64,000 nt of DNA from Escherichia coli (GTDB lineage Bacteria; Pseudomonadota; Gammaproteobacteria; Enterobacterales; Enterobacteriaceae), in the NCBI RefSeq assembly GCF_030013205.1, contig NZ_CP122648.1; one strand, 5' to 3'. Every line of letters starts with the position of its first letter. The stretch's first letter is position 1. A model generated the notes under the pieces. That model saw only the letters and a list, made by a program, of their open reading frames with translations, did not search any database and had not been told where the DNA came from. Below, one piece after another: positions 1,884 through 59,258 of this stretch. The position numbers and the translations under genes are program-made.

Positions 1884-4146
1884 CCTGGATCTCCTTCGAC
1901 AATTCGACAAAGAAGGCGCTGTATCCGGCAACGCGCACCACCAGCCCGGCATAATCTTGTGGGCGCTGTTGCGCTTCCCGCAACGTGTCGGCGTTCACCA
2001 CGTTAAACTGAATGTGTTGTAACTTAAGCTGGGTAAATGCCCGTAAGAAGTCGGCCAGTTTGCGTAATCCCGCTTCACCTTCCAGGGTCGCCGGAGTGAA
2101 TTTCACGTTCAGCAACGTACCGTTAGACAGCAGCGTATTATCGAGCTTACTGACTGACTTCAGTACCGCCGTTGGCCCTTGTGCGTCCTGACCCAGCATA
2201 GGTGACAAGCCGCCGTCTGCCAGTTGTTCCCCGGCAAAACGACCGTCTGGCGTCGCGCCAACCACCGATCCCAACGGGACGTGAGCAGAAACGGTATACG
2301 ATCCCGGCGTGAAGTAGCCGCCGCGCGGGTTCTGGTATTTTTCCACTTCTTTGCAGTAGTGGCGTAACAGTTCGGCGCTGATGTTATCCACCTCGTCGAT
2401 ATCGTTACCGTATTTCTCGAAGCGGTTAATTAAGCGAGCACGGACTTTTTCGCCTTCTGGCGTTGCGAAGTTGGCTTTTAATACCGACAGCAATTCGTCA
2501 AAACTTAAACGCTGTTGCTCAAAAACCATACCTTTCAACGCATGGAGAGAATCGCTCAGGTTAGCGATACCGATCCCCTGTACGCCGGAGAAGTTATAAC
2601 GCGCACCGCCATCGGTAATATCGCGGCCTTTTTCCAGACAATCGCTGATAAAAGACGAGAGCAGCGGTACAGGTGCCCAGTCACGGTGACCGATATCGCA
2701 AATATTGCTGCCCTCAACCATCAGGGTGATGTAGTGGCTGATCTTGGCGCGGATCTGCTCCAGTAAACCTTCATAAGTCAGCGCAGCATTGCCTTCATTT
2801 TCATGCAGGCAGATTTCCATCACTTTCAGCAGATTAAACATCGCGATGTCATGCAAGCCGTAGGTTCTGCCGGGAATAGATAATTCCACACAGCCCACTA
2901 CGGAATAGTCGCGTGCATCTTCCAGCGAAACGCCACGGTTGAGGAACGCTGGCACCACCACTTCATCGTTAAAGATTTGCGGAATACCGGTGCCGAGGCG
3001 AATGGTTTCTGCGGTTTTCATCAGGAACGGCGTGTCGATCAAGGCGTTAGTGCGCACGCCGAGGTTCGGTTGCGGTAATTGCACGCTTTGATAAGCGTCA
3101 AGGCAAAGGAACGAAAGCACGTTCACCGCGCTACGTCCGTTCTCGGTTAACCCGCCGAGCAGTGCGGTATAGCCGGTCGGGAAACCGGCGAAATAACGCG
3201 CGCTACTGGTGGAGCGCAACAGCACGATGTCGTTGCATTTCACCCATAAAGATTCGAGCAGTTCTTTCAGGAACGCCGGATCTTCGCCCTGGGTTAATGA
3301 TGCCTGATAGAACGGCAACATATACTGGTCGAAGCGCCCTAAAGACAGAGAACTGGCGTTGGATTCGTATTGCAGAATGATGTTCATGTACCAGAATAAC
3401 TGGCACGCCTGCCAGAACGTCTGCGGCTTATGTTCGGCGTTATGGCGGGAGATCTCCGCAATAGTCAGCAGTTCTTCGCGACGCTGGGCATCTGTGCAGT
3501 TTGCCGCCATCGTTTCCGCCAGTTCAGCGTAACGCAGAATGTGTTTCCGCGAGGCTTCCAGCAGTAACAGCGCTGCCTGATAAAAGTGATTCTCCGGCTG
3601 TTGCTGACAATGTTGCTGCATCTGTGCCACCAGCTCCCCCAGCCCGTGATTCAGCAGGCGCGGGTAATCAATAATAATGTGCCCCTGGCCTTTATCCGTC
3701 TGGTTGATGCTGAAAATCTGCGTGCTGGTCGCGGCTTTTACTTCATCCGTCATCTGCCCGTTAATGAAATCTTTCATCGAACGTTTTTCCCAGTACGGGA
3801 ACAACTCTTCGCGGTAGATACGTTTATCTTCTTCGCTGATAGCAAAGCGGTCCTGCGGACGCGTCGGGAATTGATCCAGCTCTTTCAGCAGCCAGTAAGG
3901 GTCCATTTCCGGCGACATAATTCCGGCGCGCGGTTTCACCGTACGGTTACCGGCAATCAGTTCTTCATCACGAATCGAAATTTCAACATGTTCAAGGATA
4001 TACGCTGTTGCTTTCGCCCGGCGCAATATCACCGGTTCGCCTTCGGTTTGCCGATGGCTGGCGGTATAAAGCAGCGCCCGCTCCAGCGAGATTTCACGGG
4101 TATTGGCAAACAGTGCAGTTTTGAGGCGAGAGATACGATTCGTCAT
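1849..4146 (-). CDS. pflD: formate acetyltransferase 2 (glycyl-radical enzyme)
   Basis: 765-aa ORF; C-terminal glycyl radical motif (RVAGYSAFF); expected size for PflD. Confidence 0.9.
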   Translation of the reverse strand: MTNRISRLKTALFANTREISLERALLYTASHRQTEGEPVILRRAKATAYILEHVEISIRDEELIAGNRTVKPRAGIMSPEMDPYWLLKELDQFPTRPQDRFAISEEDKRIYREELFPYWEKRSMKDFINGQMTDEVKAATSTQIFSINQTDKGQGHIIIDYPRLLNHGLGELVAQMQQHCQQQPENHFYQAALLLLEASRKHILRYAELAETMAANCTDAQRREELLTIAEISRHNAEHKPQTFWQACQLFWYMNIILQYESNASSLSLGRFDQYMLPFYQASLTQGEDPAFLKELLESLWVKCNDIVLLRSTSSARYFAGFPTGYTALLGGLTENGRSAVNVLSFLCLDAYQSVQLPQPNLGVRTNALIDTPFLMKTAETIRLGTGIPQIFNDEVVVPAFLNRGVSLEDARDYSVVGCVELSIPGRTYGLHDIAMFNLLKVMEICLHENEGNAALTYEGLLEQIRAKISHYITLMVEGSNICDIGHRDWAPVPLLSSFISDCLEKGRDITDGGARYNFSGVQGIGIANLSDSLHALKGMVFEQQRLSFDELLSVLKANFATPEGEKVRARLINRFEKYGNDIDEVDNISAELLRHYCKEVEKYQNPRGGYFTPGSYTVSAHVPLGSVVGATPDGRFAGEQLADGGLSPMLGQDAQGPTAVLKSVSKLDNTLLSNGTLLNVKFTPATLEGEAGLRKLADFLRAFTQLKLQHIQFNVVNADTLREAQQRPQDYAGLVVRVAGYSAFFVELSKEIQDDIIRRTAHQL

Positions 4147-46594: not shown

Positions 46595-48142
46595 TTAACC
46601 GTCATGCATCATGCTGGCACGGGCGCGCGCACGTTTATCCCGCTCGTATTTTTCGAGCGCATCCTGTAACTGGCGGTCAAGCTGTGTCCCCGGCGCAGTA
46701 CCACCCGTCAGGCTGATGTGATATTCGTTTTTACTCTGGTCTACATAAGAGCGGCCAGCCGGTGCCGTGACCGGCTGATAAGCCTGATAGCCTGCATAAG
46801 AGCTGGTCGCCGGAATATAACCACCGGTGCCATACGTGGCGGCATGAGTTCTGGCGGCGGTCTGGTCAAGTGTGTCTGACTCTTTGTTGATAACACCGAG
46901 TTTTTCCAGTACCCAGTCAATACCGCTGCGCAGTTTGTTGAACGCATTAAGCGGCAGCATCAACGCGTCAGCCAGTGCCTGCCCGAACATGACGCCCGAA
47001 TCACGGCAACGGTTCAGGGTGTCCTGGGTGGCTTTGACCGGGGCAATCAGGTTTTTAAACCACTGCCACGCGGCCTGTAACTTTTCACCCAGCCAGTCAA
47101 ACAGCGGCTTAAGTGGCGTGAACAGTTCCCCCACCGGCGCAAATGCTGCTTTCAGCCCTTCAACCACACCGCCAAAGAATGCGCTGACAGGCTCCCAGTA
47201 TTTACGGATAAGCAACGCCCCGGCGACAATGGCGGCCACCACGGCCACAACCGGCCAGCTAATCGCCCCGATGGCCGTCATAACAGCACTGCCAACCGTC
47301 GTGAAGATTGCCCCCATTGCGCCTGCTGCCGCAATGATGGCATTGATGCCGGTGATAACCGGCCAGGCTACAAGACCAATTGCACCGATGATGCCAGTAA
47401 GCGCCAGTGCGCCACCGGCAATGATGCCGATAGTTGCCGCCAGTGATTTGTTTTTCTGTATCCAGCCGTCGAGTTTTAACACATACTTTGTGGCCGTCTG
47501 CGTGAGCTTACGCAGTGCGCCTTCCTGCTGGTCAAACAGGTCAGTCCCCACCGCTTCATAAGCGGACTGAAACTCCTTAAAGTCACCGCCGAGGTTGTCC
47601 TGCATGATTTTAACCAGCTCTTCCGTTTTACCGTCTGAGGCTTTCAGCGTGGCGGTCAGCTTATCCAGTTTTCCGCTTGCAGCCGCTGCCAGTAAAACGT
47701 TCGCTGATTTCAGGGCTTCCTCACCAAAAATGGTTTTAAGGTATTCCCCCTTCTGAGACGTTCCCAGCTTGTGTTTATCAAAGCTGACCTGAATCTCTTT
47801 CAGAATGGTGAACAACGGACGCATATTTCCCTTTTTGTCCGAGGTTTTAACGCCAAGCTCTTTGAGTGCTTCCCATGCTTTCCCTGTCGGAGCCTGTAAT
47901 CGGGTGACAACGGCACTACTCCCCGTACCCAGCATGGAGCCGATGCCGCACACCGCAGGCAGTGACAGGTCAGGAAACTGCACCAGAACAACACCGGCAA
48001 CCATCGAGACAAAACCACCGAGCAACATGCGCCCGATAAACAGACGCGGGGTGATGGGTTCACCACCGGCAAGCACCTTGCCGACAACAATCAGCACCCC
48101 AATCATGAAAAGCGACAGGACGCTTTTTTCTTCTGCTGTCAT
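46595..48142 (-). CDS. in-frame fusion: N-terminal holin (Y)-like membrane segment joined to C-terminal tape-measure (T) fragment
   Basis: 515-aa ORF starts 4 bp inside the X stop (Y position) with hydrophobic holin-like helices (SVLSLFMIGVLIVVGKVLAGG…) and ends just before U (T position) with Ala/Gly-rich tape-measure-like sequence; far too short for an intact T. Confidence 0.65.
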   Translation of the reverse strand: MTAEEKSVLSLFMIGVLIVVGKVLAGGEPITPRLFIGRMLLGGFVSMVAGVVLVQFPDLSLPAVCGIGSMLGTGSSAVVTRLQAPTGKAWEALKELGVKTSDKKGNMRPLFTILKEIQVSFDKHKLGTSQKGEYLKTIFGEEALKSANVLLAAAASGKLDKLTATLKASDGKTEELVKIMQDNLGGDFKEFQSAYEAVGTDLFDQQEGALRKLTQTATKYVLKLDGWIQKNKSLAATIGIIAGGALALTGIIGAIGLVAWPVITGINAIIAAAGAMGAIFTTVGSAVMTAIGAISWPVVAVVAAIVAGALLIRKYWEPVSAFFGGVVEGLKAAFAPVGELFTPLKPLFDWLGEKLQAAWQWFKNLIAPVKATQDTLNRCRDSGVMFGQALADALMLPLNAFNKLRSGIDWVLEKLGVINKESDTLDQTAARTHAATYGTGGYIPATSSYAGYQAYQPVTAPAGRSYVDQSKNEYHISLTGGTAPGTQLDRQLQDALEKYERDKRARARASMMHDG

Positions 48143-51864: not shown

Positions 51865-53637
51865 ATGACCATCACCACAGACACCACTCTTTTACACGAC
51901 CCGCGTCGTCAGGCGGCGCTGCTGTACTGGCAGGGGTTTTCCGTGCCGCAGATTGCCGCCATGTTGCAGATGAAACGCCCGACGGTGCAGAGCTGGAAAC
52001 AGCGCGACGGCTGGGACAGCGTTGCCCCCATCAGCCGTGTCGAAATGAGTCTGGAAGCGCGGCTGACCCAGCTCATCATCAAACCGCAGAAAACCGGCGG
52101 TGACTTCAAGGAAATTGACCTGCTCGGACGCCAGATTGAACGGCTGGCACGGGTCAACCGTTACAGTCAGACCGGCAACGAGGCAGACCTTAATCCGAAC
52201 GTCGCTAACCGCAACAAAGGCGGGCGTCGCAAACCGAAAAAGAATTTTTTCAGCGACGAAGCCATCGAAAAGCTGGAGCAGATTTTCTTTGAGCAGTCTT
52301 TCGACTATCAGTTGCACTGGTATCGCGCCGGGCTTGAGCACCGCATCCGCGATATCCTGAAATCCCGCCAGATTGGCGCGACGTTTTATTTTTCCCGCGA
52401 GGCGCTGCTGCGTGCCCTGAAAACCGGTCATAACCAAATTTTTCTGTCGGCCAGTAAAACGCAGGCGTATGTGTTCCGCGAATACATCATCGCCTTTGCC
52501 CGTCTGGTTGACGTTGACCTGACCGGTGACCCGATTGTCCTGGGCAATAACGGCGCAAAACTGATTTTTCTCGGCACCAACTCCAACACCGCGCAGAGCC
52601 ATAACGGCGACCTGTACGTCGACGAGATTTTCTGGATCCCGAATTTTCAGGTACTGCGTAAGGTGGCATCAGGTATGGCCTCACAGAGCCACCTGCGCTC
52701 GACCTATTTCTCCACCCCGTCCACGCTGGCGCACGACGCCTACCCATTCTGGTCGGGTGAACTGTTCAACCGGGGACGCGCCAGCGCCGCTGAACGCGTG
52801 GAAATCGACGTCAGTCATAACGCCCTTGCCGGGGGGCTTCTCTGTGCGGACGGCCAGTGGCGGCAGATTGTCACCATTGAGGACGCCCTGAAAGGTGGCT
52901 GCACGCTGTTCGACATTGAGCAGCTCAAACGTGAAAACAGCGCCGACGATTTTAAAAACCTGTTCATGTGTGAATTTGTTGACGACAAGGCGTCGGTGTT
53001 CCCGTTCGAGGAGCTGCAACGCTGCATGGTCGACACGCTGGAAGAATGGGAAGACTATGCGCCGTTTGCCGCCAATCCGTTCGGCTCCCGCCCGGTATGG
53101 ATTGGTTACGACCCGTCACACCGTGGCGACAGCGCCGGATGCGTGGTGCTGGCACCGCCGGTGGTGGCCGGAGGTAAATTCAGAATACTTGAGCGTCACC
53201 AGTGGAAAGGCATGGACTTTGCCACTCAGGCGGAATCCATCCGCAAACTCACCGAAAAATACAACGTCGAATACATCGGAATTGATGCCACCGGCCTCGG
53301 TGTCGGCGTGTTCCAGCTCGTGCGCTCGTTCTATCCCGCCGCGCGCGATATCCGCTACACGCCGGAAATGAAAACCGCAATGGTGCTCAAGGCAAAAGAC
53401 GTCATCCGCCGTGGCTGTCTGGAATATGACGTCAGCGCCACCGACATCACCAGCTCGTTCATGGCTATCCGCAAGACCATGACCAGCAGCGGACGCAGCG
53501 CCACCTATGAGGCCAGCCGTAGCGAGGAAGCCAGCCACGCCGACCTCGCCTGGGCGACCATGCACGCCCTGTTAAATGAGCCACTCACCGCCGGTATCAG
53601 CACCCCGCTGACATCCACCATTCTGGAGTTTTACTGA
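51865..53637 (+). CDS. P: terminase ATPase (large) subunit P
   Basis: ORF trimmed to MTITTDTTLLHDPRRQAALLYWQGFSV (590 aa). Confidence 0.9.
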   Translation: MTITTDTTLLHDPRRQAALLYWQGFSVPQIAAMLQMKRPTVQSWKQRDGWDSVAPISRVEMSLEARLTQLIIKPQKTGGDFKEIDLLGRQIERLARVNRYSQTGNEADLNPNVANRNKGGRRKPKKNFFSDEAIEKLEQIFFEQSFDYQLHWYRAGLEHRIRDILKSRQIGATFYFSREALLRALKTGHNQIFLSASKTQAYVFREYIIAFARLVDVDLTGDPIVLGNNGAKLIFLGTNSNTAQSHNGDLYVDEIFWIPNFQVLRKVASGMASQSHLRSTYFSTPSTLAHDAYPFWSGELFNRGRASAAERVEIDVSHNALAGGLLCADGQWRQIVTIEDALKGGCTLFDIEQLKRENSADDFKNLFMCEFVDDKASVFPFEELQRCMVDTLEEWEDYAPFAANPFGSRPVWIGYDPSHRGDSAGCVVLAPPVVAGGKFRILERHQWKGMDFATQAESIRKLTEKYNVEYIGIDATGLGVGVFQLVRSFYPAARDIRYTPEMKTAMVLKAKDVIRRGCLEYDVSATDITSSFMAIRKTMTSSGRSATYEASRSEEASHADLAWATMHALLNEPLTAGISTPLTSTILEFY

Positions 53638-54671
53638 TGAGCAAGAAAAAAGGGAAAACACCGCAACCTGCGGCAAAAAAAATGACCGCCAGCGCCCCGA
53701 AAATGGAGGCATTCACCTTTGGTGAGCCGGTGCCGGTACTCGACCGCCGTGACATTCTGGATTACGTCGAGTGCATCAGTAACGGCAGATGGTATGAGCC
53801 ACCAGTCAGCTTTACCGGTCTGGCAAAAAGCCTGCGTGCTGCCGTGCATCACAGCTCACCGATTTACGTCAAACGCAATATTCTGGCCTCGACATTTATC
53901 CCACATCCGTGGCTTTCCCAGCAGGATTTCAGCCGCTTTGTGCTGGATTTTCTGGTGTTCGGTAATGCGTTTCTGGAAAAGCGTTACAGCACCACCGGCA
54001 AGGTCATCAGACTGGAAACCTCACCGGCAAAATATACCCGCCGTGGTGTGGAAGAGGATGTTTACTGGTGGGTGCCGTCCTTCAACGAGCCGACAGCCTT
54101 CGCGCCCGGTTCCGTGTTTCACCTGCTGGAGCCGGATATTAATCAGGAGCTGTACGGCCTGCCGGAATATCTCAGCGCCCTTAACTCTGCCTGGCTGAAT
54201 GAGTCAGCCACGCTGTTCCGCCGCAAGTATTACGAAAACGGCGCTCATGCCGGATACATCATGTACGTCACCGATGCCGTGCAGGATCGCAACGATATCG
54301 AAATGCTTCGCGAAAACATGGTTAAGTCGAAAGGCCGCAACAACTTTAAAAACCTGTTTCTCTATGCCCCGCAGGGGAAAGCTGACGGCATTAAAATTAT
54401 CCCGCTCAGTGAAGTGGCGACGAAGGACGATTTTTTTAATATCAAAAAAGCCAGTGCCGCAGACCTGCTGGACGCGCACCGCATCCCCTTTCAGTTGATG
54501 GGCGGCAAGCCGGAGAACGTCGGGTCGCTGGGTGATATTGAGAAAGTGGCAAAGGTCTTTGTCCGCAATGAGCTTATCCCGTTACAGGACAGGATTCGGG
54601 AAATAAACGGCTGGCTCGGTCAGGAGGTCATCCGCTTTAAAAACTACTCACTGGACACTGACAACGGCTGA
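53637..54671 (+). CDS. Q: portal protein Q
   Basis: 344-aa ORF; start overlaps P stop. Confidence 0.9.
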   Translation: MSKKKGKTPQPAAKKMTASAPKMEAFTFGEPVPVLDRRDILDYVECISNGRWYEPPVSFTGLAKSLRAAVHHSSPIYVKRNILASTFIPHPWLSQQDFSRFVLDFLVFGNAFLEKRYSTTGKVIRLETSPAKYTRRGVEEDVYWWVPSFNEPTAFAPGSVFHLLEPDINQELYGLPEYLSALNSAWLNESATLFRRKYYENGAHAGYIMYVTDAVQDRNDIEMLRENMVKSKGRNNFKNLFLYAPQGKADGIKIIPLSEVATKDDFFNIKKASAADLLDAHRIPFQLMGGKPENVGSLGDIEKVAKVFVRNELIPLQDRIREINGWLGQEVIRFKNYSLDTDNG

Positions 54672-54840: not shown

Positions 54841-54859
54841 GTGCTTTCCCCGCCTCGCC
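54841..54859. other. cos site (19-nt cohesive-end sequence)
   Basis: GTGCTTTCCCCGCCTCGCC is the reverse complement of GGCGAGGCGGGGAAAGCAC, the P2/186 cohesive end as I recall it; lies between Q and the cargo, as in the P2 map. Confidence 0.55.
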
Positions 54860-55498: not shown

Positions 55499-56830
55499 TT
55501 AACGCTTATCATGGAACTTTTTCCATTTTGTCATCAACTTTCCAGCATCAAGTTCTACATGATGCGGTTGTAGAGTTTTACCCTCAAACATAGTTTTGTG
55601 GATACAATTAATAGAGAAATGAACCGTTAAGTCCTCTGGATTAATCCCCATTAATCCTTTATCAAACATTCGGTGTAAACTTACTTCAAGTAACAGGCCA
55701 TTAGATGTGTTATTATTTGCTGATTCTGTTATTGCTTCAATATGTGCGGCTTCCAATATCCCCTCTGGCAATGGATAGCCAGTAATAGCACATCTGCCAT
55801 TGAAGTTATCCCAAACACGGCGTTTGAAATCAGCTTGATCTCCAGCATGACGGACTTTGTGAGTAACCTCGACTGTTCGTCCTGTAGCACAGGTATCGTT
55901 TGCGGCCTTGAAAGGATTAATTAGACTTTCATTAATGGCTATATCCGTTCCATCCATGATAAGAGATATTTCATTATTGGGTTCGGGTGATGTTAATGGA
56001 CTTATGTACTGATTGCTTAAAAAAGTCATACTAGATTCTTCATCAGTCGCGAGTTTCCACGCTTCTGATTGTGTCATTGTTAGCAATGCCGTTTGATAAA
56101 CTTGCTTATTAAAATAACGTTTATCTTTCTTGTAACTCCCCATATTAATAGTACTAGATTTAATCGGAAGTGTTTTATCACCAATTAGTAGATCACGTAT
56201 TTCTACAGTCTCTTCTAAGGTATCAATAGGAGCTACTATAGGGTTAGTAAACGGGTTATCTACATGATCTACGTGGTTGTGTCGTAAATGCCACTCTATA
56301 GCACTATCTTTTATATGTATCTCGCAGACAGGGCATACAATAAGCCCCATAGATGTTACAGGTAGCTTTTTGCCACCGATTAAGCGTAATGTATTTGCAT
56401 TCTGGTTATGTACTTTCTTTTGGTTCTGTGTCAGTACACTACGCTTAGCCTCTAAACGGGTCGGAATCTTAGCAAGATTAAGCGATTTACGGCTCTCTTG
56501 TCTCTCAAGATCATAGATCCGAATCCCTGCTTCAGTTTTGATTTTTGTCCACATAGAGATAGAACTAAGGAATTTATGTCCATGTACTTTTTCATAATCA
56601 GCATAAGCTTGCAAAGTAGCAGTGGAACTATCTAATCCTTTTTTACGGAGTGCTGTATATTGCTGAAAAAGATTAATAGCATGAGCTGTAATAGAGCGCC
56701 TATTCTCTATAATTTGCGCTTTTTTTGCTGCTTGTTCTGCTTGCAATGCTTTTTGTTCAGGGGTAAGCGACTTCTTTTTGGCTTTCTTGGTTCTTTTCTT
56801 ACTCAAAGTTTTCTTACTGTTATTGTTCAT
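55499..56830 (-). CDS. HNH nuclease-domain cargo protein (Lys-rich N-terminus, C2H2-like zinc finger, C-terminal HNH)
   Basis: 443-aa ORF; N-terminus SKKTLSKKRTKKAKKK; CPVCEIHIKDSAIEWHLRHNH; C-terminus GRCAITGYPLPEGILEAAHIEAI…SNGLLLEVSLHRMFDKGLMGI resembles the HNH endonuclease core; AT-rich. Confidence 0.7.
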   Translation of the reverse strand: MNNNSKKTLSKKRTKKAKKKSLTPEQKALQAEQAAKKAQIIENRRSITAHAINLFQQYTALRKKGLDSSTATLQAYADYEKVHGHKFLSSISMWTKIKTEAGIRIYDLERQESRKSLNLAKIPTRLEAKRSVLTQNQKKVHNQNANTLRLIGGKKLPVTSMGLIVCPVCEIHIKDSAIEWHLRHNHVDHVDNPFTNPIVAPIDTLEETVEIRDLLIGDKTLPIKSSTINMGSYKKDKRYFNKQVYQTALLTMTQSEAWKLATDEESSMTFLSNQYISPLTSPEPNNEISLIMDGTDIAINESLINPFKAANDTCATGRTVEVTHKVRHAGDQADFKRRVWDNFNGRCAITGYPLPEGILEAAHIEAITESANNNTSNGLLLEVSLHRMFDKGLMGINPEDLTVHFSINCIHKTMFEGKTLQPHHVELDAGKLMTKWKKFHDKR

Positions 56831-56939
56831 TTTGCAAGCCTTTAATCTAATTCATGGAAAGGGGCATTCACTTGCCCTGTATCCAGTAAACTGACATAAC
56901 ACGATATAAGCAAGCTCCGTAATTCTTTCATGTTAATCA

Positions 56940-59258
56940 TCAATGGTCCATTGTGAATCCCGGCCACTCATCAGCGACCGGATACGTGAATTTTTTACCG
57001 TCGTAATTTACAGTCGCGCCACGCGCCAGCGCCTCAAGCTCCCATCTCTGAGGCCTGATACCGTTCTGAGCAAGGTCTACGCGGATACGGGTAATTTGCA
57101 TTCGTTCTGACCGGGTCAGTCTGGCCGATGGTGCAATTTCATGCGGTTTTAACGGGCTTCCGTTTCTTTGCTGACGGTTTGGCGTTCTCAGGTCGTATTT
57201 TAATGCGCCCCTGAGCGCCCTCACGACCTCCGGTTCATTCCATTCAATAACACCGTCATCAACCAGATTAAGCACTGCTGCGGCGTGCTCAGAAGGAGTG
57301 GGAGCCGGTAACGAAGTATCACCGCTGGTGAGCTTTCCACAGTTATTGACAGGACTCCGAGGCGCGGCGATGCCGCTTTTTAAAGTCAAAGGCTCAACGA
57401 CCGGAACTTTCGGCACAATGCGCCAGTCCGTCGTTCTGGTGATATGAATATGACGCGCGCCGAGATGCGGCGCGTAAATGCCGACCACTCTCTCGACTTC
57501 TTCCTCGTATTCGTTAACGTCATCCGACGGGCTACGGGCGACCCTGACAGTCTGACAATCGCGCGGGACATTTGCCCCGCCCTGCGCGCTGATATACAGC
57601 GCAAAATCGCCACTGTCTGCGGCGGCGCGTGCAGCCTCCACGCGTTCGTCAAATTCATCAGCAATGCTGACGCCGCGAGGCAATTTACGTAGCTCACGGT
57701 AAGCTCCCATTGTCGGCAGGCCAACCGTTTTAAATTGCGGGATGCGCCACGTTGATGCCCATGCGGTAACAGCCGCCGCAGTATCTTTCAGCGGTCTGCC
57801 GGTATCGTTATCGAGCTGACCATCCAGTGCATAGCCGTCGATATTTTTTGAAATGTATTTCGCGATATATCCCGCAGCACCGCCCCGGTTAAGGTGTTTT
57901 GCCTGAAAACGGTTTCGCGCGGCTCCTCTTTCGTCGCCATCCTCTTTGAGCGCATAGCGACGCATGATTTCGATAATCTGGTTACGCTGGCGTGGATTAC
58001 AAAAAAGCATCATATGCCAGTGCGGCGTTCCGTCGTGGTGTGGCTCGACGACTCGCAAACCGTAGACCTGTAAATCATTATCCTTGAATGCCGTGCGCAT
58101 CAGGCTCCAGATACGGCAGAGATAACGCTGCGCATCCTTTGGATTAAATGCCTCATCATTCCAGCCGTGATTAAGCTGGACGGTTTTATTTTCGCCTTTT
58201 CCGACCTGACGTGTCGGGTGATACTTTGACGGCGCGGTAAGCGTGATAAACATCCCCACATCACCCTCTGAGGCGGCGTAACGCTCAATACCGGCAATGG
58301 TGTTCATCAGCTCCATCCGGCGAATTTCAGGATTAGAAATACTGCCCATCACCTTACTGATAAGGTCGATGCGCTCGCCGGTTTCCCTGTTTTCAAGGTC
58401 ACACGATTTAAGAAATTCCAGATTTGCCTGGCGGCGCGCACGCACATCACGAATGGCGTGTTTACTGGCATAAGGAGAACGGTCTTTATTGACCTCCCCG
58501 ACAGCTATCAGTAACGCTTCATGCCAGCGCATACGCTGGCCTTTAAGCTGATGAGTCCACCACTCATCGTTAAACAGACGGGCAATTGCAGAATATGCCT
58601 GCCTCGTGGTCATCTGTCCTTTACGGTATTTTTTCCAGTAGAGAGGGGAAATATTGAAAGCACGTGCAGCACCAGCAACATGACCATAGAGGTGAGCCTG
58701 CGCCTCATCCGTAAACAGCGATTCTTTTTCGCCATGCGCATCCACCCAGGCATCGCTGAGTTCCTCATACATCATGAAAAGCTGCGATGAGATACGGGCA
58801 GCAAACTTTTTCAGCTCCTTGTCATTCATTCCCGGCAGGCGCGCATAGTGGTCACGCTCTGCCAGAAACAGTAACGACGCGTCGGTGTTCATTTCATGGC
58901 GCTGATTCACACGCTCAATGCGCGGCCATAAACGACGCTGAAAAGTGGATGTGAGGAAATAAAACCCGTGCACCGGGCTTTTATTGCGCCGGATGTAGTC
59001 ATAGCGTGAAGTAAACAGCGAGCGCAAAAAGTAAGGCAGGCGGTTAATCGTGGATAAAACACCTTGCACCTGACGCATCTCGTCACGTGTAAGGGGTCTT
59101 TCGCGCCCGACAGCCTCGCGTGGCGCGTTCCATGCATAAGCACCTGTAAACGCCTTACCGGTGCCTGCGGCAAATGCTGACGGAGGGACAAAACGTCCGG
59201 AGGCTTTAACGGCCATGTGAGCCAAAAGCCTCTGAACAACGCTTGCTGAGTTGCTCAA
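56940..59258 (-). CDS. A: replication initiation endonuclease A (rolling-circle Rep)
   Basis: 772-aa ORF in the P2 A position; true start may be a few codons downstream. Confidence 0.85.
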   Translation of the reverse strand: MSNSASVVQRLLAHMAVKASGRFVPPSAFAAGTGKAFTGAYAWNAPREAVGRERPLTRDEMRQVQGVLSTINRLPYFLRSLFTSRYDYIRRNKSPVHGFYFLTSTFQRRLWPRIERVNQRHEMNTDASLLFLAERDHYARLPGMNDKELKKFAARISSQLFMMYEELSDAWVDAHGEKESLFTDEAQAHLYGHVAGAARAFNISPLYWKKYRKGQMTTRQAYSAIARLFNDEWWTHQLKGQRMRWHEALLIAVGEVNKDRSPYASKHAIRDVRARRQANLEFLKSCDLENRETGERIDLISKVMGSISNPEIRRMELMNTIAGIERYAASEGDVGMFITLTAPSKYHPTRQVGKGENKTVQLNHGWNDEAFNPKDAQRYLCRIWSLMRTAFKDNDLQVYGLRVVEPHHDGTPHWHMMLFCNPRQRNQIIEIMRRYALKEDGDERGAARNRFQAKHLNRGGAAGYIAKYISKNIDGYALDGQLDNDTGRPLKDTAAAVTAWASTWRIPQFKTVGLPTMGAYRELRKLPRGVSIADEFDERVEAARAAADSGDFALYISAQGGANVPRDCQTVRVARSPSDDVNEYEEEVERVVGIYAPHLGARHIHITRTTDWRIVPKVPVVEPLTLKSGIAAPRSPVNNCGKLTSGDTSLPAPTPSEHAAAVLNLVDDGVIEWNEPEVVRALRGALKYDLRTPNRQQRNGSPLKPHEIAPSARLTRSERMQITRIRVDLAQNGIRPQRWELEALARGATVNYDGKKFTYPVADEWPGFTMDH

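Follow-up and report, generated by a model that had tools for sequence, protein, structure and literature searches.

In VcaM4I, an EVE-HNH enzyme of known structure (PDB 6yex), the isolated HNH domain is a toxic, non-specific nuclease that a linker helix and the DNA reader keep inactive, and TagI, ScoMcrA and EcoKMcrA are related modification-dependent HNH enzymes (PMC7897488). The type II restriction enzymes AlwI, BbrI and HphI, which carry an HNH_2 domain (Pfam PF13391), are placed in group 6 of the His-Me finger classification (PMC5714182). P2-like prophages keep a cargo hotspot at gpA-cos-gpQ, occupied by old and tin in P2 itself, with 1,650 gene arrangements in the count by Rousset et al. 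(2022; PMC9122126). Here we analysed a 64,000-nucleotide stretch of Escherichia coli DNA (contig NZ_CP122648.1; the window), in which a gene in this hotspot encodes a 443-residue protein that joins a single C2H2 zinc finger to a C-terminal HNH_2 domain. Our best explanation, held with about even confidence, is that the protein is a stand-alone, prophage-borne defence DNase that would act directly on foreign DNA.

The 443-residue protein resembles VcaM4I, the nearest solved relative of its HNH domain by sequence, in uniting, within one polypeptide, an N-terminus that would read DNA, a linker helix and an HNH domain at the C-terminus; neither has a cognate methyltransferase, and both are found on mobile elements. 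It differs in the predicted metal ligand, which is a histidine here (H386) and Asp250 in VcaM4I, and its N-terminus, unlike that of VcaM4I-type enzymes, combines a basic stretch and one C2H2 finger with a helical motif that matches no family. With AlwI, BbrI and HphI it shares PF13391 and a separate, poorly predictable recognition domain, but those enzymes work with a cognate methyltransferase, whereas none is adjacent to the HNH gene or its sampled homologs. As a short system in the same slot it would follow the prophage-protects-host logic of old and tin (PMC9122126), although the protein has no sequence relationship to Old, which is an ATPase-TOPRIM protein, or to Tin. Its finger is like eukaryotic C2H2 fingers (ZBTB17/Miz-1, CTCF and a designed consensus) in ligand spacing and hydrophobic core positions. 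In contrast to these, it is one finger and no array, and it stands in a protein of bacterial mobile elements, fused to a nuclease; the subfamily of the window has 11, not 12, residues between the second cysteine and the first histidine.

Nuclease domain, zinc finger and protein layout

The C-terminal domain matches Pfam HNH_2 (PF13391) at residues 347-397 over the whole length of the model (E-value 2.5e-10), and the same match is precomputed for nearly all homologs. Conservation was judged in an alignment of 24 family members reaching down to 25% identity, in which H363, N377 and H386 are invariant. Residues R327, Q332, F335, N342 and F343 of the lead-in helix are invariant as well and align with the matching segment of VcaM4I, an R..Q..F motif being common to both. 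The VcaM4I structure itself was matched at an E-value of 2.1e-5, with H224, N241 and D250 aligned to H363, N377 and H386; in VcaM4I these are the water-activating histidine, the structural asparagine and the metal ligand, respectively (PMC7897488). In the C-terminal 120 residues, PADLOC matched its 'HNH' model at 3e-11 and an HNH model labelled 'Type II restriction enzyme' at 2.5e-7. The NCBIfam model PT-DNA_restrict (phosphorothioate-DNA restriction endonuclease) was matched at 2.9e-8 with 33 bits, far under its 180-bit cutoff, and therefore denotes similarity rather than membership.

The full-length AlphaFold2 model, built from the 24-sequence alignment, is poor (mean predicted local distance difference test score, pLDDT, 54.7) and usable only in the finger and over most of residues 330-443. 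Over most of the latter region pLDDT is 65-86, with a helix at 383-390 that bears H386, and the loop at 361-375 is below 50. Foldseek of this model against the PDB returned a best E-value of 3, the weak matches including Cas9 HNH, T4 endonuclease VII and Cap5. Thus, it is sequence profiles and the conservation of catalytic residues that carry the HNH assignment, and we judge these sufficient for membership of the HNH_2 family. An HNH-like C-terminus had been read by an earlier note on this DNA, and the PF13391 match and the three invariant residues bear that claim out.

Across the 24 members the finger ligands C166, C169, H181 and H186 are near-invariant, in the pattern C-x2-C-x11-H-x4-H in the subfamily of the window and C-x2-C-x3-F-x5-F-x2-H-x4-H in other subfamilies, the latter being the textbook finger pattern with its x12 spacing. 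The earlier note correctly put a C2H2 element in the middle of the protein, but gave its histidines an H-x2-H spacing; the ligands are H181 and H186 (H-x4-H), and H184 is not near-invariant. A profile of the family matched zinc fingers in the PDB, led by ZBTB17 (5.7e-5), the designed protein Aart (2.5e-4) and a consensus finger (5.5e-4), with a weaker tail of CTCF, BCL11A and ZBTB7A fingers. In the AlphaFold2 model the finger takes the form of strands at 163-165 and 172-174 and a helix at 175-185, at a pLDDT of only about 57-62. The C2H2 pattern is present in 52 of the 57 best family matches. A member of 460 residues (P0017) has a second C-x2-C...H-x4-H element, INVCCIICKGAMPSDSLFFHITSKH, shortly past the conserved finger, and finger number therefore varies within the family.

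An alignment of the finger together with the next conserved helical motif (alignment A3) was run as a profile against 1.84 billion representative proteins and gave two populations: long proteins with multiple hits, and proteins of 280-550 residues matched once over the full module. The long proteins were matched in many short stretches by profile positions of about 5-40, and the 13 of them that were checked each contain between 2 and 38 canonical C2H2 patterns, the eleven with more than 300 residues having 7-38. All full-module matches with a complete C-terminus carry the HNH domain of this family, and the helical motif was found alongside the finger in every full-module match. These searches indicate that a single C2H2 finger, the helical motif, a linker and HNH_2 constitute a fixed architecture.

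The open reading frame begins with ATG and has the coordinates reported earlier (Table 1); the chance of a stop-free run of 443 codons is about 3e-15 at the local base composition, in a region that is AT-rich. RefSeq labels the protein 'HNH endonuclease signature motif containing protein' at an identical E. coli locus, and it matches PHROG 20585, to which the PHROGs database assigns no function, at an E-value of 3.8e-182. The model places N-terminal helices at 24-63, 68-83 and 91-115 with a pLDDT of about 60-79. N-termini of other subfamilies are unrelated, much shorter, or begin almost at the finger, so that the lysine-rich helical tail belongs to the subfamily of the window only. The three-part layout that the earlier note had proposed, a basic N-terminus followed by a C2H2 finger and a C-terminal HNH domain, agrees with the counts of lysine and arginine, the ligand conservation and the PF13391 match. 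Its poly-lysine N-terminus exists, with 13 lysine or arginine residues in the first 40, but is limited to the closest subfamily and is no family feature. Upstream of the gene, a promoter-like site at 56957-56930 is weak (9 of 12 matches), and a promoter scan found sigma-70-like sites in the region to be no more numerous than in shuffled sequence. An Rfam search of the cargo region gave no match.

Table 1. Positions of the nuclease gene, its parts and its surroundings in the window
Feature	Position	Strand	Basis or remarks
C2H2-finger/HNH_2 nuclease gene	55499..56830	-	Open reading frame; RefSeq WP_023281581.1; PHROG 20585; G+C content 37.7%
Lysine-rich tail (residues 5-20), then long predicted helices, residues 1-120	56471..56830	-	13 lysine or arginine in first 40 residues; isoelectric point 10.7
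Very basic stretch just before the finger, residues 121-160	56351..56470	-	9 lysine or arginine against 1 aspartate or glutamate; isoelectric point 11.8; predicted disordered, pLDDT <50
Single classical C2H2 finger CPVCEIHIKDSAIEWHLRHNH, residues 166-186	56273..56335	-	Ligands C166, C169, H181, H186
Junction of the in-frame 177-bp (59-codon) deletion, residues 203/204	56211..56226	-	Comparison with full-length homologs
Helical motif RYFN..Y..A..TMTQSEAWKLA.D, residues 238-265	56036..56119	-	Y245, A248 and A257 near-invariant; helices 242-273 in the model
HNH_2 nuclease domain, residues 322-443	55502..55867	-	Lead-in helix, H363/N377/H386 core, conserved C-terminal extension
Spacer between gpA stop and HNH start, 109 bp	56831..56939	-	Sequence; weak sigma-70-like match overlaps the gpA end
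P2 gpA-type replication endonuclease, conserved left border	56940..59258	-	Open reading frame; annotated 'replication endonuclease' in an identical locus
P2 gpQ-type portal protein, conserved right border	53637..54671	+	Open reading frame; annotated 'phage portal protein'
P2 cos cohesive end GGCGAGGCGGGGAAAGCAC, portal-side hotspot edge	54841..54859	-	19 nucleotides identical to cosL (bases 1-19) of P2 NC_001895
Minimal HEPN protein, 139 residues, WP_023281582.1	54988..55407	-	Invariant R83-N-x-L-x-H88; confident model; HEPN fold matches

Hotspot cargo and the short form

The gene lies in the P2 gpA-cos-gpQ slot, with cosL at its portal-side edge, which supports the defence-hotspot setting proposed earlier. 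Its G+C content and that of the adjacent gene for a 139-residue protein (38.8%) compare with 53% for gpA and the portal gene. A set of 5,426 complete E. coli genomes contained 2,155 with matches to the query flanks, only 11 of which have the whole cargo, at an identity of at least 99%. The low G+C content relative to the backbone and the patchy presence indicate that the cargo was acquired horizontally.

The prophage that carries it (about 44.6-62.7 kb) is, by its gene content, a defective P2-like remnant that still keeps its hotspot cargo. The open reading frame at 46595-48142 (minus strand) encodes a 515-residue fusion, in which residues 1-82 correspond to a holin (phrog_175) and residues 68-511 to the C-terminal part of a tape-measure protein (phrog_28); thus, an internal deletion took out the lysis genes and most of the tail and baseplate genes. 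E. coli K_EC180 (L001 17114-19972) has an identical cargo inside a P2 remnant that has decayed in another way, with a truncated tail gene directly adjoining a fragment that lies immediately upstream of the portal gene, and the cargo therefore persists in more than one version of a decayed prophage.

In some cos phages an HNH protein assists the terminase in cutting cos, and the nearness of this gene to cos and to the portal and terminase genes would suit such a packaging helper. We regard that role as exceedingly improbable, as the hotspot flanks are matched without this gene in over 2,000 E. coli genomes, homologs are found in non-phage elements, and a protein of 443 residues with a restriction-type HNH_2 domain is unlike a short packaging HNH protein.

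The closest full-length relatives, with Citrobacter, Pectobacterium and Enterobacter among their sources, have 500-512 residues and are 59-69% identical over the local alignment. Six close homologs have a segment of 59 residues, placed after the finger and before the helical motif, that the protein of the window is missing. In the Citrobacter gene, TTGATACTGTCGAAGA and TTGATACTTTAGAAGA form 16-bp near-identical direct repeats 177 bp apart, and the gene of the window has a single copy, TTGATACCTTAGAAGA; two spaced copies against one are the mark of a deletion between short direct repeats. The same segment is deleted, with other junction residues, from another short form of 449 residues (P0008). 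This loss of its own suggests, on comparison of the sequences, that the protein can do without the segment or takes on another specificity when it is lost. Pfam, run on the full-length Citrobacter homolog, gave no match to the segment, and a PDB sequence search gave none either. A resemblance by eye to AP2-type DNA-binding domains was pursued in the same Pfam and PDB searches, which gave nothing, and we do not claim it.

It is quite improbable, in our view, that the protein is a decayed remnant disabled by this in-frame deletion. Decay would fit the removal of a domain-sized segment that six close homologs have, in a prophage that is itself without lysis and tail genes. Against it, 11 genomes, from isolates of human, swine and chicken origin, share the short form at 99% identity or more, 57 sequences belong to its 90% cluster, and P0008 lost the same segment at a junction with different residues. 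The short form is widespread, with an intact reading frame and with its zinc ligands and catalytic residues preserved; we therefore treat it as a functional variant, although its function may have been lost or changed.

Homolog contexts and the HEPN neighbour

Members of the family occur in at least six unrelated genomic contexts, with no common fixed insertion (homing) site. A Citrobacter homolog (65% identical) belongs to a chromosomal island, where its neighbours are a resolvase and both genes of Gabija (GajA 2.6e-213, GajB 7e-163), and an E. coli homolog (P0048) is beside PARIS (AriA 8e-46, AriB 2.8e-24), a large helicase and an ArdC-type gene. The Salmonella member is a lone gene in opposite orientation between the conjugation operons of an integrative conjugative element. 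In Cronobacter and in another E. coli, members are in islands adjoining thiamine kinase genes (thiM side), and the Cronobacter island has an integrase. Two divergent C2H2-HNH paralogs of 470 and 499 residues (P0014 and P0028) may share one E. coli contig, and the island around the former (L007) also encodes a small protein with HNH_3 and AP2 (3079-3531) and an Hcp-like protein.

No methyltransferase was found in the prophage region or beside the homologs in the five other contexts, and no neighbour of the HNH homologs is conserved in any sampled context. Candidate partners were considered in two cases. The upstream genes of 389 residues in Citrobacter and 298 residues in E. coli are unrelated to each other, and an open reading frame of 139 residues in the Cronobacter island is unrelated as well.

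These contexts also bear on whether the gene is a free-standing homing endonuclease, that is, a selfish gene whose HNH product cleaves a specific site in the genomes of related phages without the gene, into which repair then copies it, with no role in defence. A phage HNH gene with a DNA-binding type of finger, placed between conserved genes and as sporadic as 11 of 2,155 flank-matching genomes, could be read in this way. We consider it distinctly unlikely, given that homologs in unrelated non-phage loci with different flanks misfit a fixed homing site and that the slot is a general cargo hotspot with its 1,650 gene arrangements (PMC9122126). Moreover, it is HNH_2 and restriction-enzyme models that match, and searches of Pfam, NCBIfam and PADLOC found no other HNH family and no DNA-binding module of homing endonucleases.

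The 139-residue protein encoded downstream of the HNH gene is labelled hypothetical in RefSeq and belongs to a PHROGs family without an assigned function. Its motif R83-N-x-L-x-H88, the Rx4H motif of HEPN proteins, is invariant in 29 sequences down to 36% identity, as is EAAQLLExEL in helix 1 (residues 16-25). The AlphaFold model is all-helical and confident (pLDDT 90, predicted template modelling score 0.83). In Foldseek against AFDB50 it matched MAE_28990/MAE_18760-like HEPN proteins (8e-8, template modelling (TM) score 0.86), with AbiU2-like, DUF86, Apea-like and Cthe_2314-like HEPN proteins also among the matches. Sequence searches gave no Pfam or NCBIfam match, and a partial PADLOC match to PD-Lambda-3_B (E-value 0.002) was not taken as membership. 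We conclude from the motif and the predicted fold that this is a minimal HEPN protein, most likely with RNase activity. Like minimal HEPN proteins of the MAE_28990/MAE_18760-like, AbiU2-like and DUF86/HepT types (TM 0.8-0.88), it is an all-helical bundle in which a long helix opens with the Rx4H motif. It differs in that its gene has no adjacent MNT-type antitoxin and its helix 1 has the extra acidic EAAQLLExEL.

The HEPN gene is present in 30 complete E. coli genomes, always at the cos-proximal end of the P2 hotspot, in 11 with the HNH gene and in 19 without it. Eighteen of the latter have a variant at 83% nucleotide identity, and the remaining copy is practically alone. In strain LS4, the one of the 18 that was examined (L002 7118-9617), the gene stands beside a DUF2971 protein, which matches the PADLOC candidate PDC-S31 (2e-47), and two hypothetical proteins, which match PDC-M18A/B (9e-41 and 3e-19). 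Several candidate modules are stacked in the LS4 hotspot. Across the 30 genomes the gene has at least three sets of neighbours. In genomes without HNH, some 77 bp preceding the HEPN start belong to the block of homology, which breaks off immediately before reaching the stop codon of HNH; the HEPN gene therefore travels with its own upstream region.

These observations speak to a two-gene system, in which the HNH and 139-residue proteins would act together, be it as a toxin with its antitoxin, an effector with its regulator or a DNase paired with an RNase. The two genes are on the same strand, 91 bp apart and similar in G+C content, all 11 E. coli genomes with HNH have the HEPN gene beside it, and the pair appears as one arrangement in the table of Rousset et al. 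Nevertheless we hold such a pair to be rather improbable. The HEPN gene does without HNH in the 19 other genomes, beside PDC-S31/PDC-M18 candidates or practically alone, and takes its own upstream region along in a block that stops just short of HNH. In 15 loci that represent the five other contexts, tblastn gave no homolog of the 139-residue protein up to a distance of about 6 kb from the HNH gene; the HNH homologs there include those at 65%, 38%, 36% and 35% identity over the full protein and one at 51% over the HNH domain. Additionally, a HEPN protein with an intact Rx4H motif is typically a toxin itself rather than an antitoxin. The dedicated partner or regulator that the earlier note saw in this protein is thus not supported, and the HEPN gene appears, from its distribution, to be a separate and independent module. 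No antitoxin-like partner accompanies the gene, which by itself may constitute an RNase-type module of defence or addiction.

Proposed mode of action, weighing and significance

As a stand-alone defence DNase, the protein would cut DNA through its HNH_2 domain by one-metal His-Me catalysis, with H363 activating the water, H386 holding the metal and N377 in a structural role. The N-terminal half, comprising the basic stretch, the C2H2 finger and the helical motif, would provide targeting and gating and is presumed to bind DNA. The GAGA factor shows that one finger with flanking basic regions can bind DNA specifically. Because no methyltransferase or conserved partner accompanies the gene anywhere, the enzyme itself must spare the host genome, presumably by a cleavage step gated by what the N-terminal half binds. 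Such gating would most likely be type IV-like, as in VcaM4I, the reader and linker helix holding the nuclease off until the right DNA is bound. A solitary nuclease without a methyltransferase is most simply explained as type IV-like, attacking modified or otherwise phage-specific DNA, and this is possibly such an enzyme. The basis of this reading is what was observed of the architecture, the conservation of catalytic and zinc ligands, the hotspot site, horizontal acquisition, the defence neighbourhoods of homologs and the independence from the 139-residue gene; that the protein is an active nuclease, works against phages, binds DNA with its finger and is auto-inhibited we infer, as we do its recognised target. 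That the C2H2 finger and helical module is a new target reader, which would sense a modified base or another phage-specific feature of DNA and release an auto-inhibited HNH_2 domain, is a more specific proposal that we consider doubtful.

The main alternative, and an unlikely one, is an abortive-infection nuclease, which would stay inactive until a phage cue (a phage protein or a replication or packaging intermediate) and then degrade host and phage DNA alike, killing the infected cell. The evidence from architecture and context suits it equally, the isolated VcaM4I HNH domain is a toxic non-specific DNase, and the N-terminal half is unlike any known DNA-modification reader. Abortive systems, Old among them, are part of P2 hotspot cargo, and the related P4 hotspot carries PARIS (PMC9122126). 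However, the characterised proteins that matched the HNH domain in our searches are restriction enzymes acting directly on foreign DNA (PMC5714182), and Pfam searches found no ATPase, NLR, TIR or similar sensor domain.

Several points weigh against a stand-alone defence DNase. The N-terminal half matches no known modification-reader domain in Pfam, and searches of residues 1-320 by Pfam, NCBIfam, PADLOC and PDB sequence comparison found no PUA, SRA, EVE, YTH, sulfur-binding, NEco or winged-helix reader. Pfam zinc-finger models stayed below threshold on the 443-residue protein or its homolog (zf-Di19 0.069, OrsD 0.1), and the full-length model, with its mean pLDDT of 54.7, yielded no significant match in the fold search. 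The protein of the window is without the 59 residues of its closest relatives and could be impaired. All 11 E. coli copies of the HNH gene in the P2 hotspot adjoin the HEPN gene, and a local functional link is possible. The evidence from defence neighbourhoods comes from five sampled contexts and is not a statistical survey. Finally, the arrangement is absent from the table of tested systems of Rousset et al.

Table S5A of that study lists 'HNH_2 + hypothetical' among P2 hotspot loci, one with the identical accession of the 139-residue protein, and there is no HNH entry in its tested-systems table or among the eight additional systems of its text (PMC9122126). A search of the available literature found no paper with the accessions WP_023281581.1 or WP_023281582.1, nor one combining C2H2, HNH and anti-phage. 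Of two large screens for E. coli defence, the DefensePredictor supplement contains neither the accessions nor HNH_2/PF13391 and the supplement of Vassallo et al. neither the accessions nor HNH. PADLOC v2 has no specific model for the HNH protein or the 139-residue protein.

A solitary restriction-type HNH nuclease on a prophage is of a well-known kind, but a single classical C2H2 finger as its targeting module is unusual. If the protein defends, a compact single-gene nuclease (about 1.3 kb in the short form) would be added to the defence repertoire. The C2H2 fold is widely used in eukaryotic gene regulation and in genome engineering, and a natural fusion of finger and nuclease bears on how solitary nucleases spare the host genome and could possibly become a tool. 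Recognition of two separate hotspot modules, a putative DNase and a minimal HEPN protein, corrects the reading of a gene pair and matters for cloning 'the system'. For the specialist, the C2H2-HNH fusion and its spread in defence loci make the gene worth cloning, though not startling. Should the finger and helical module prove to be a new target reader, these proteins would be a new class of type IV-like restriction enzymes on the prophages, conjugative elements and defence islands of Enterobacterales, and changes in the finger helix between subfamilies, together with gain or loss of the 59-residue segment, would retune their specificity.

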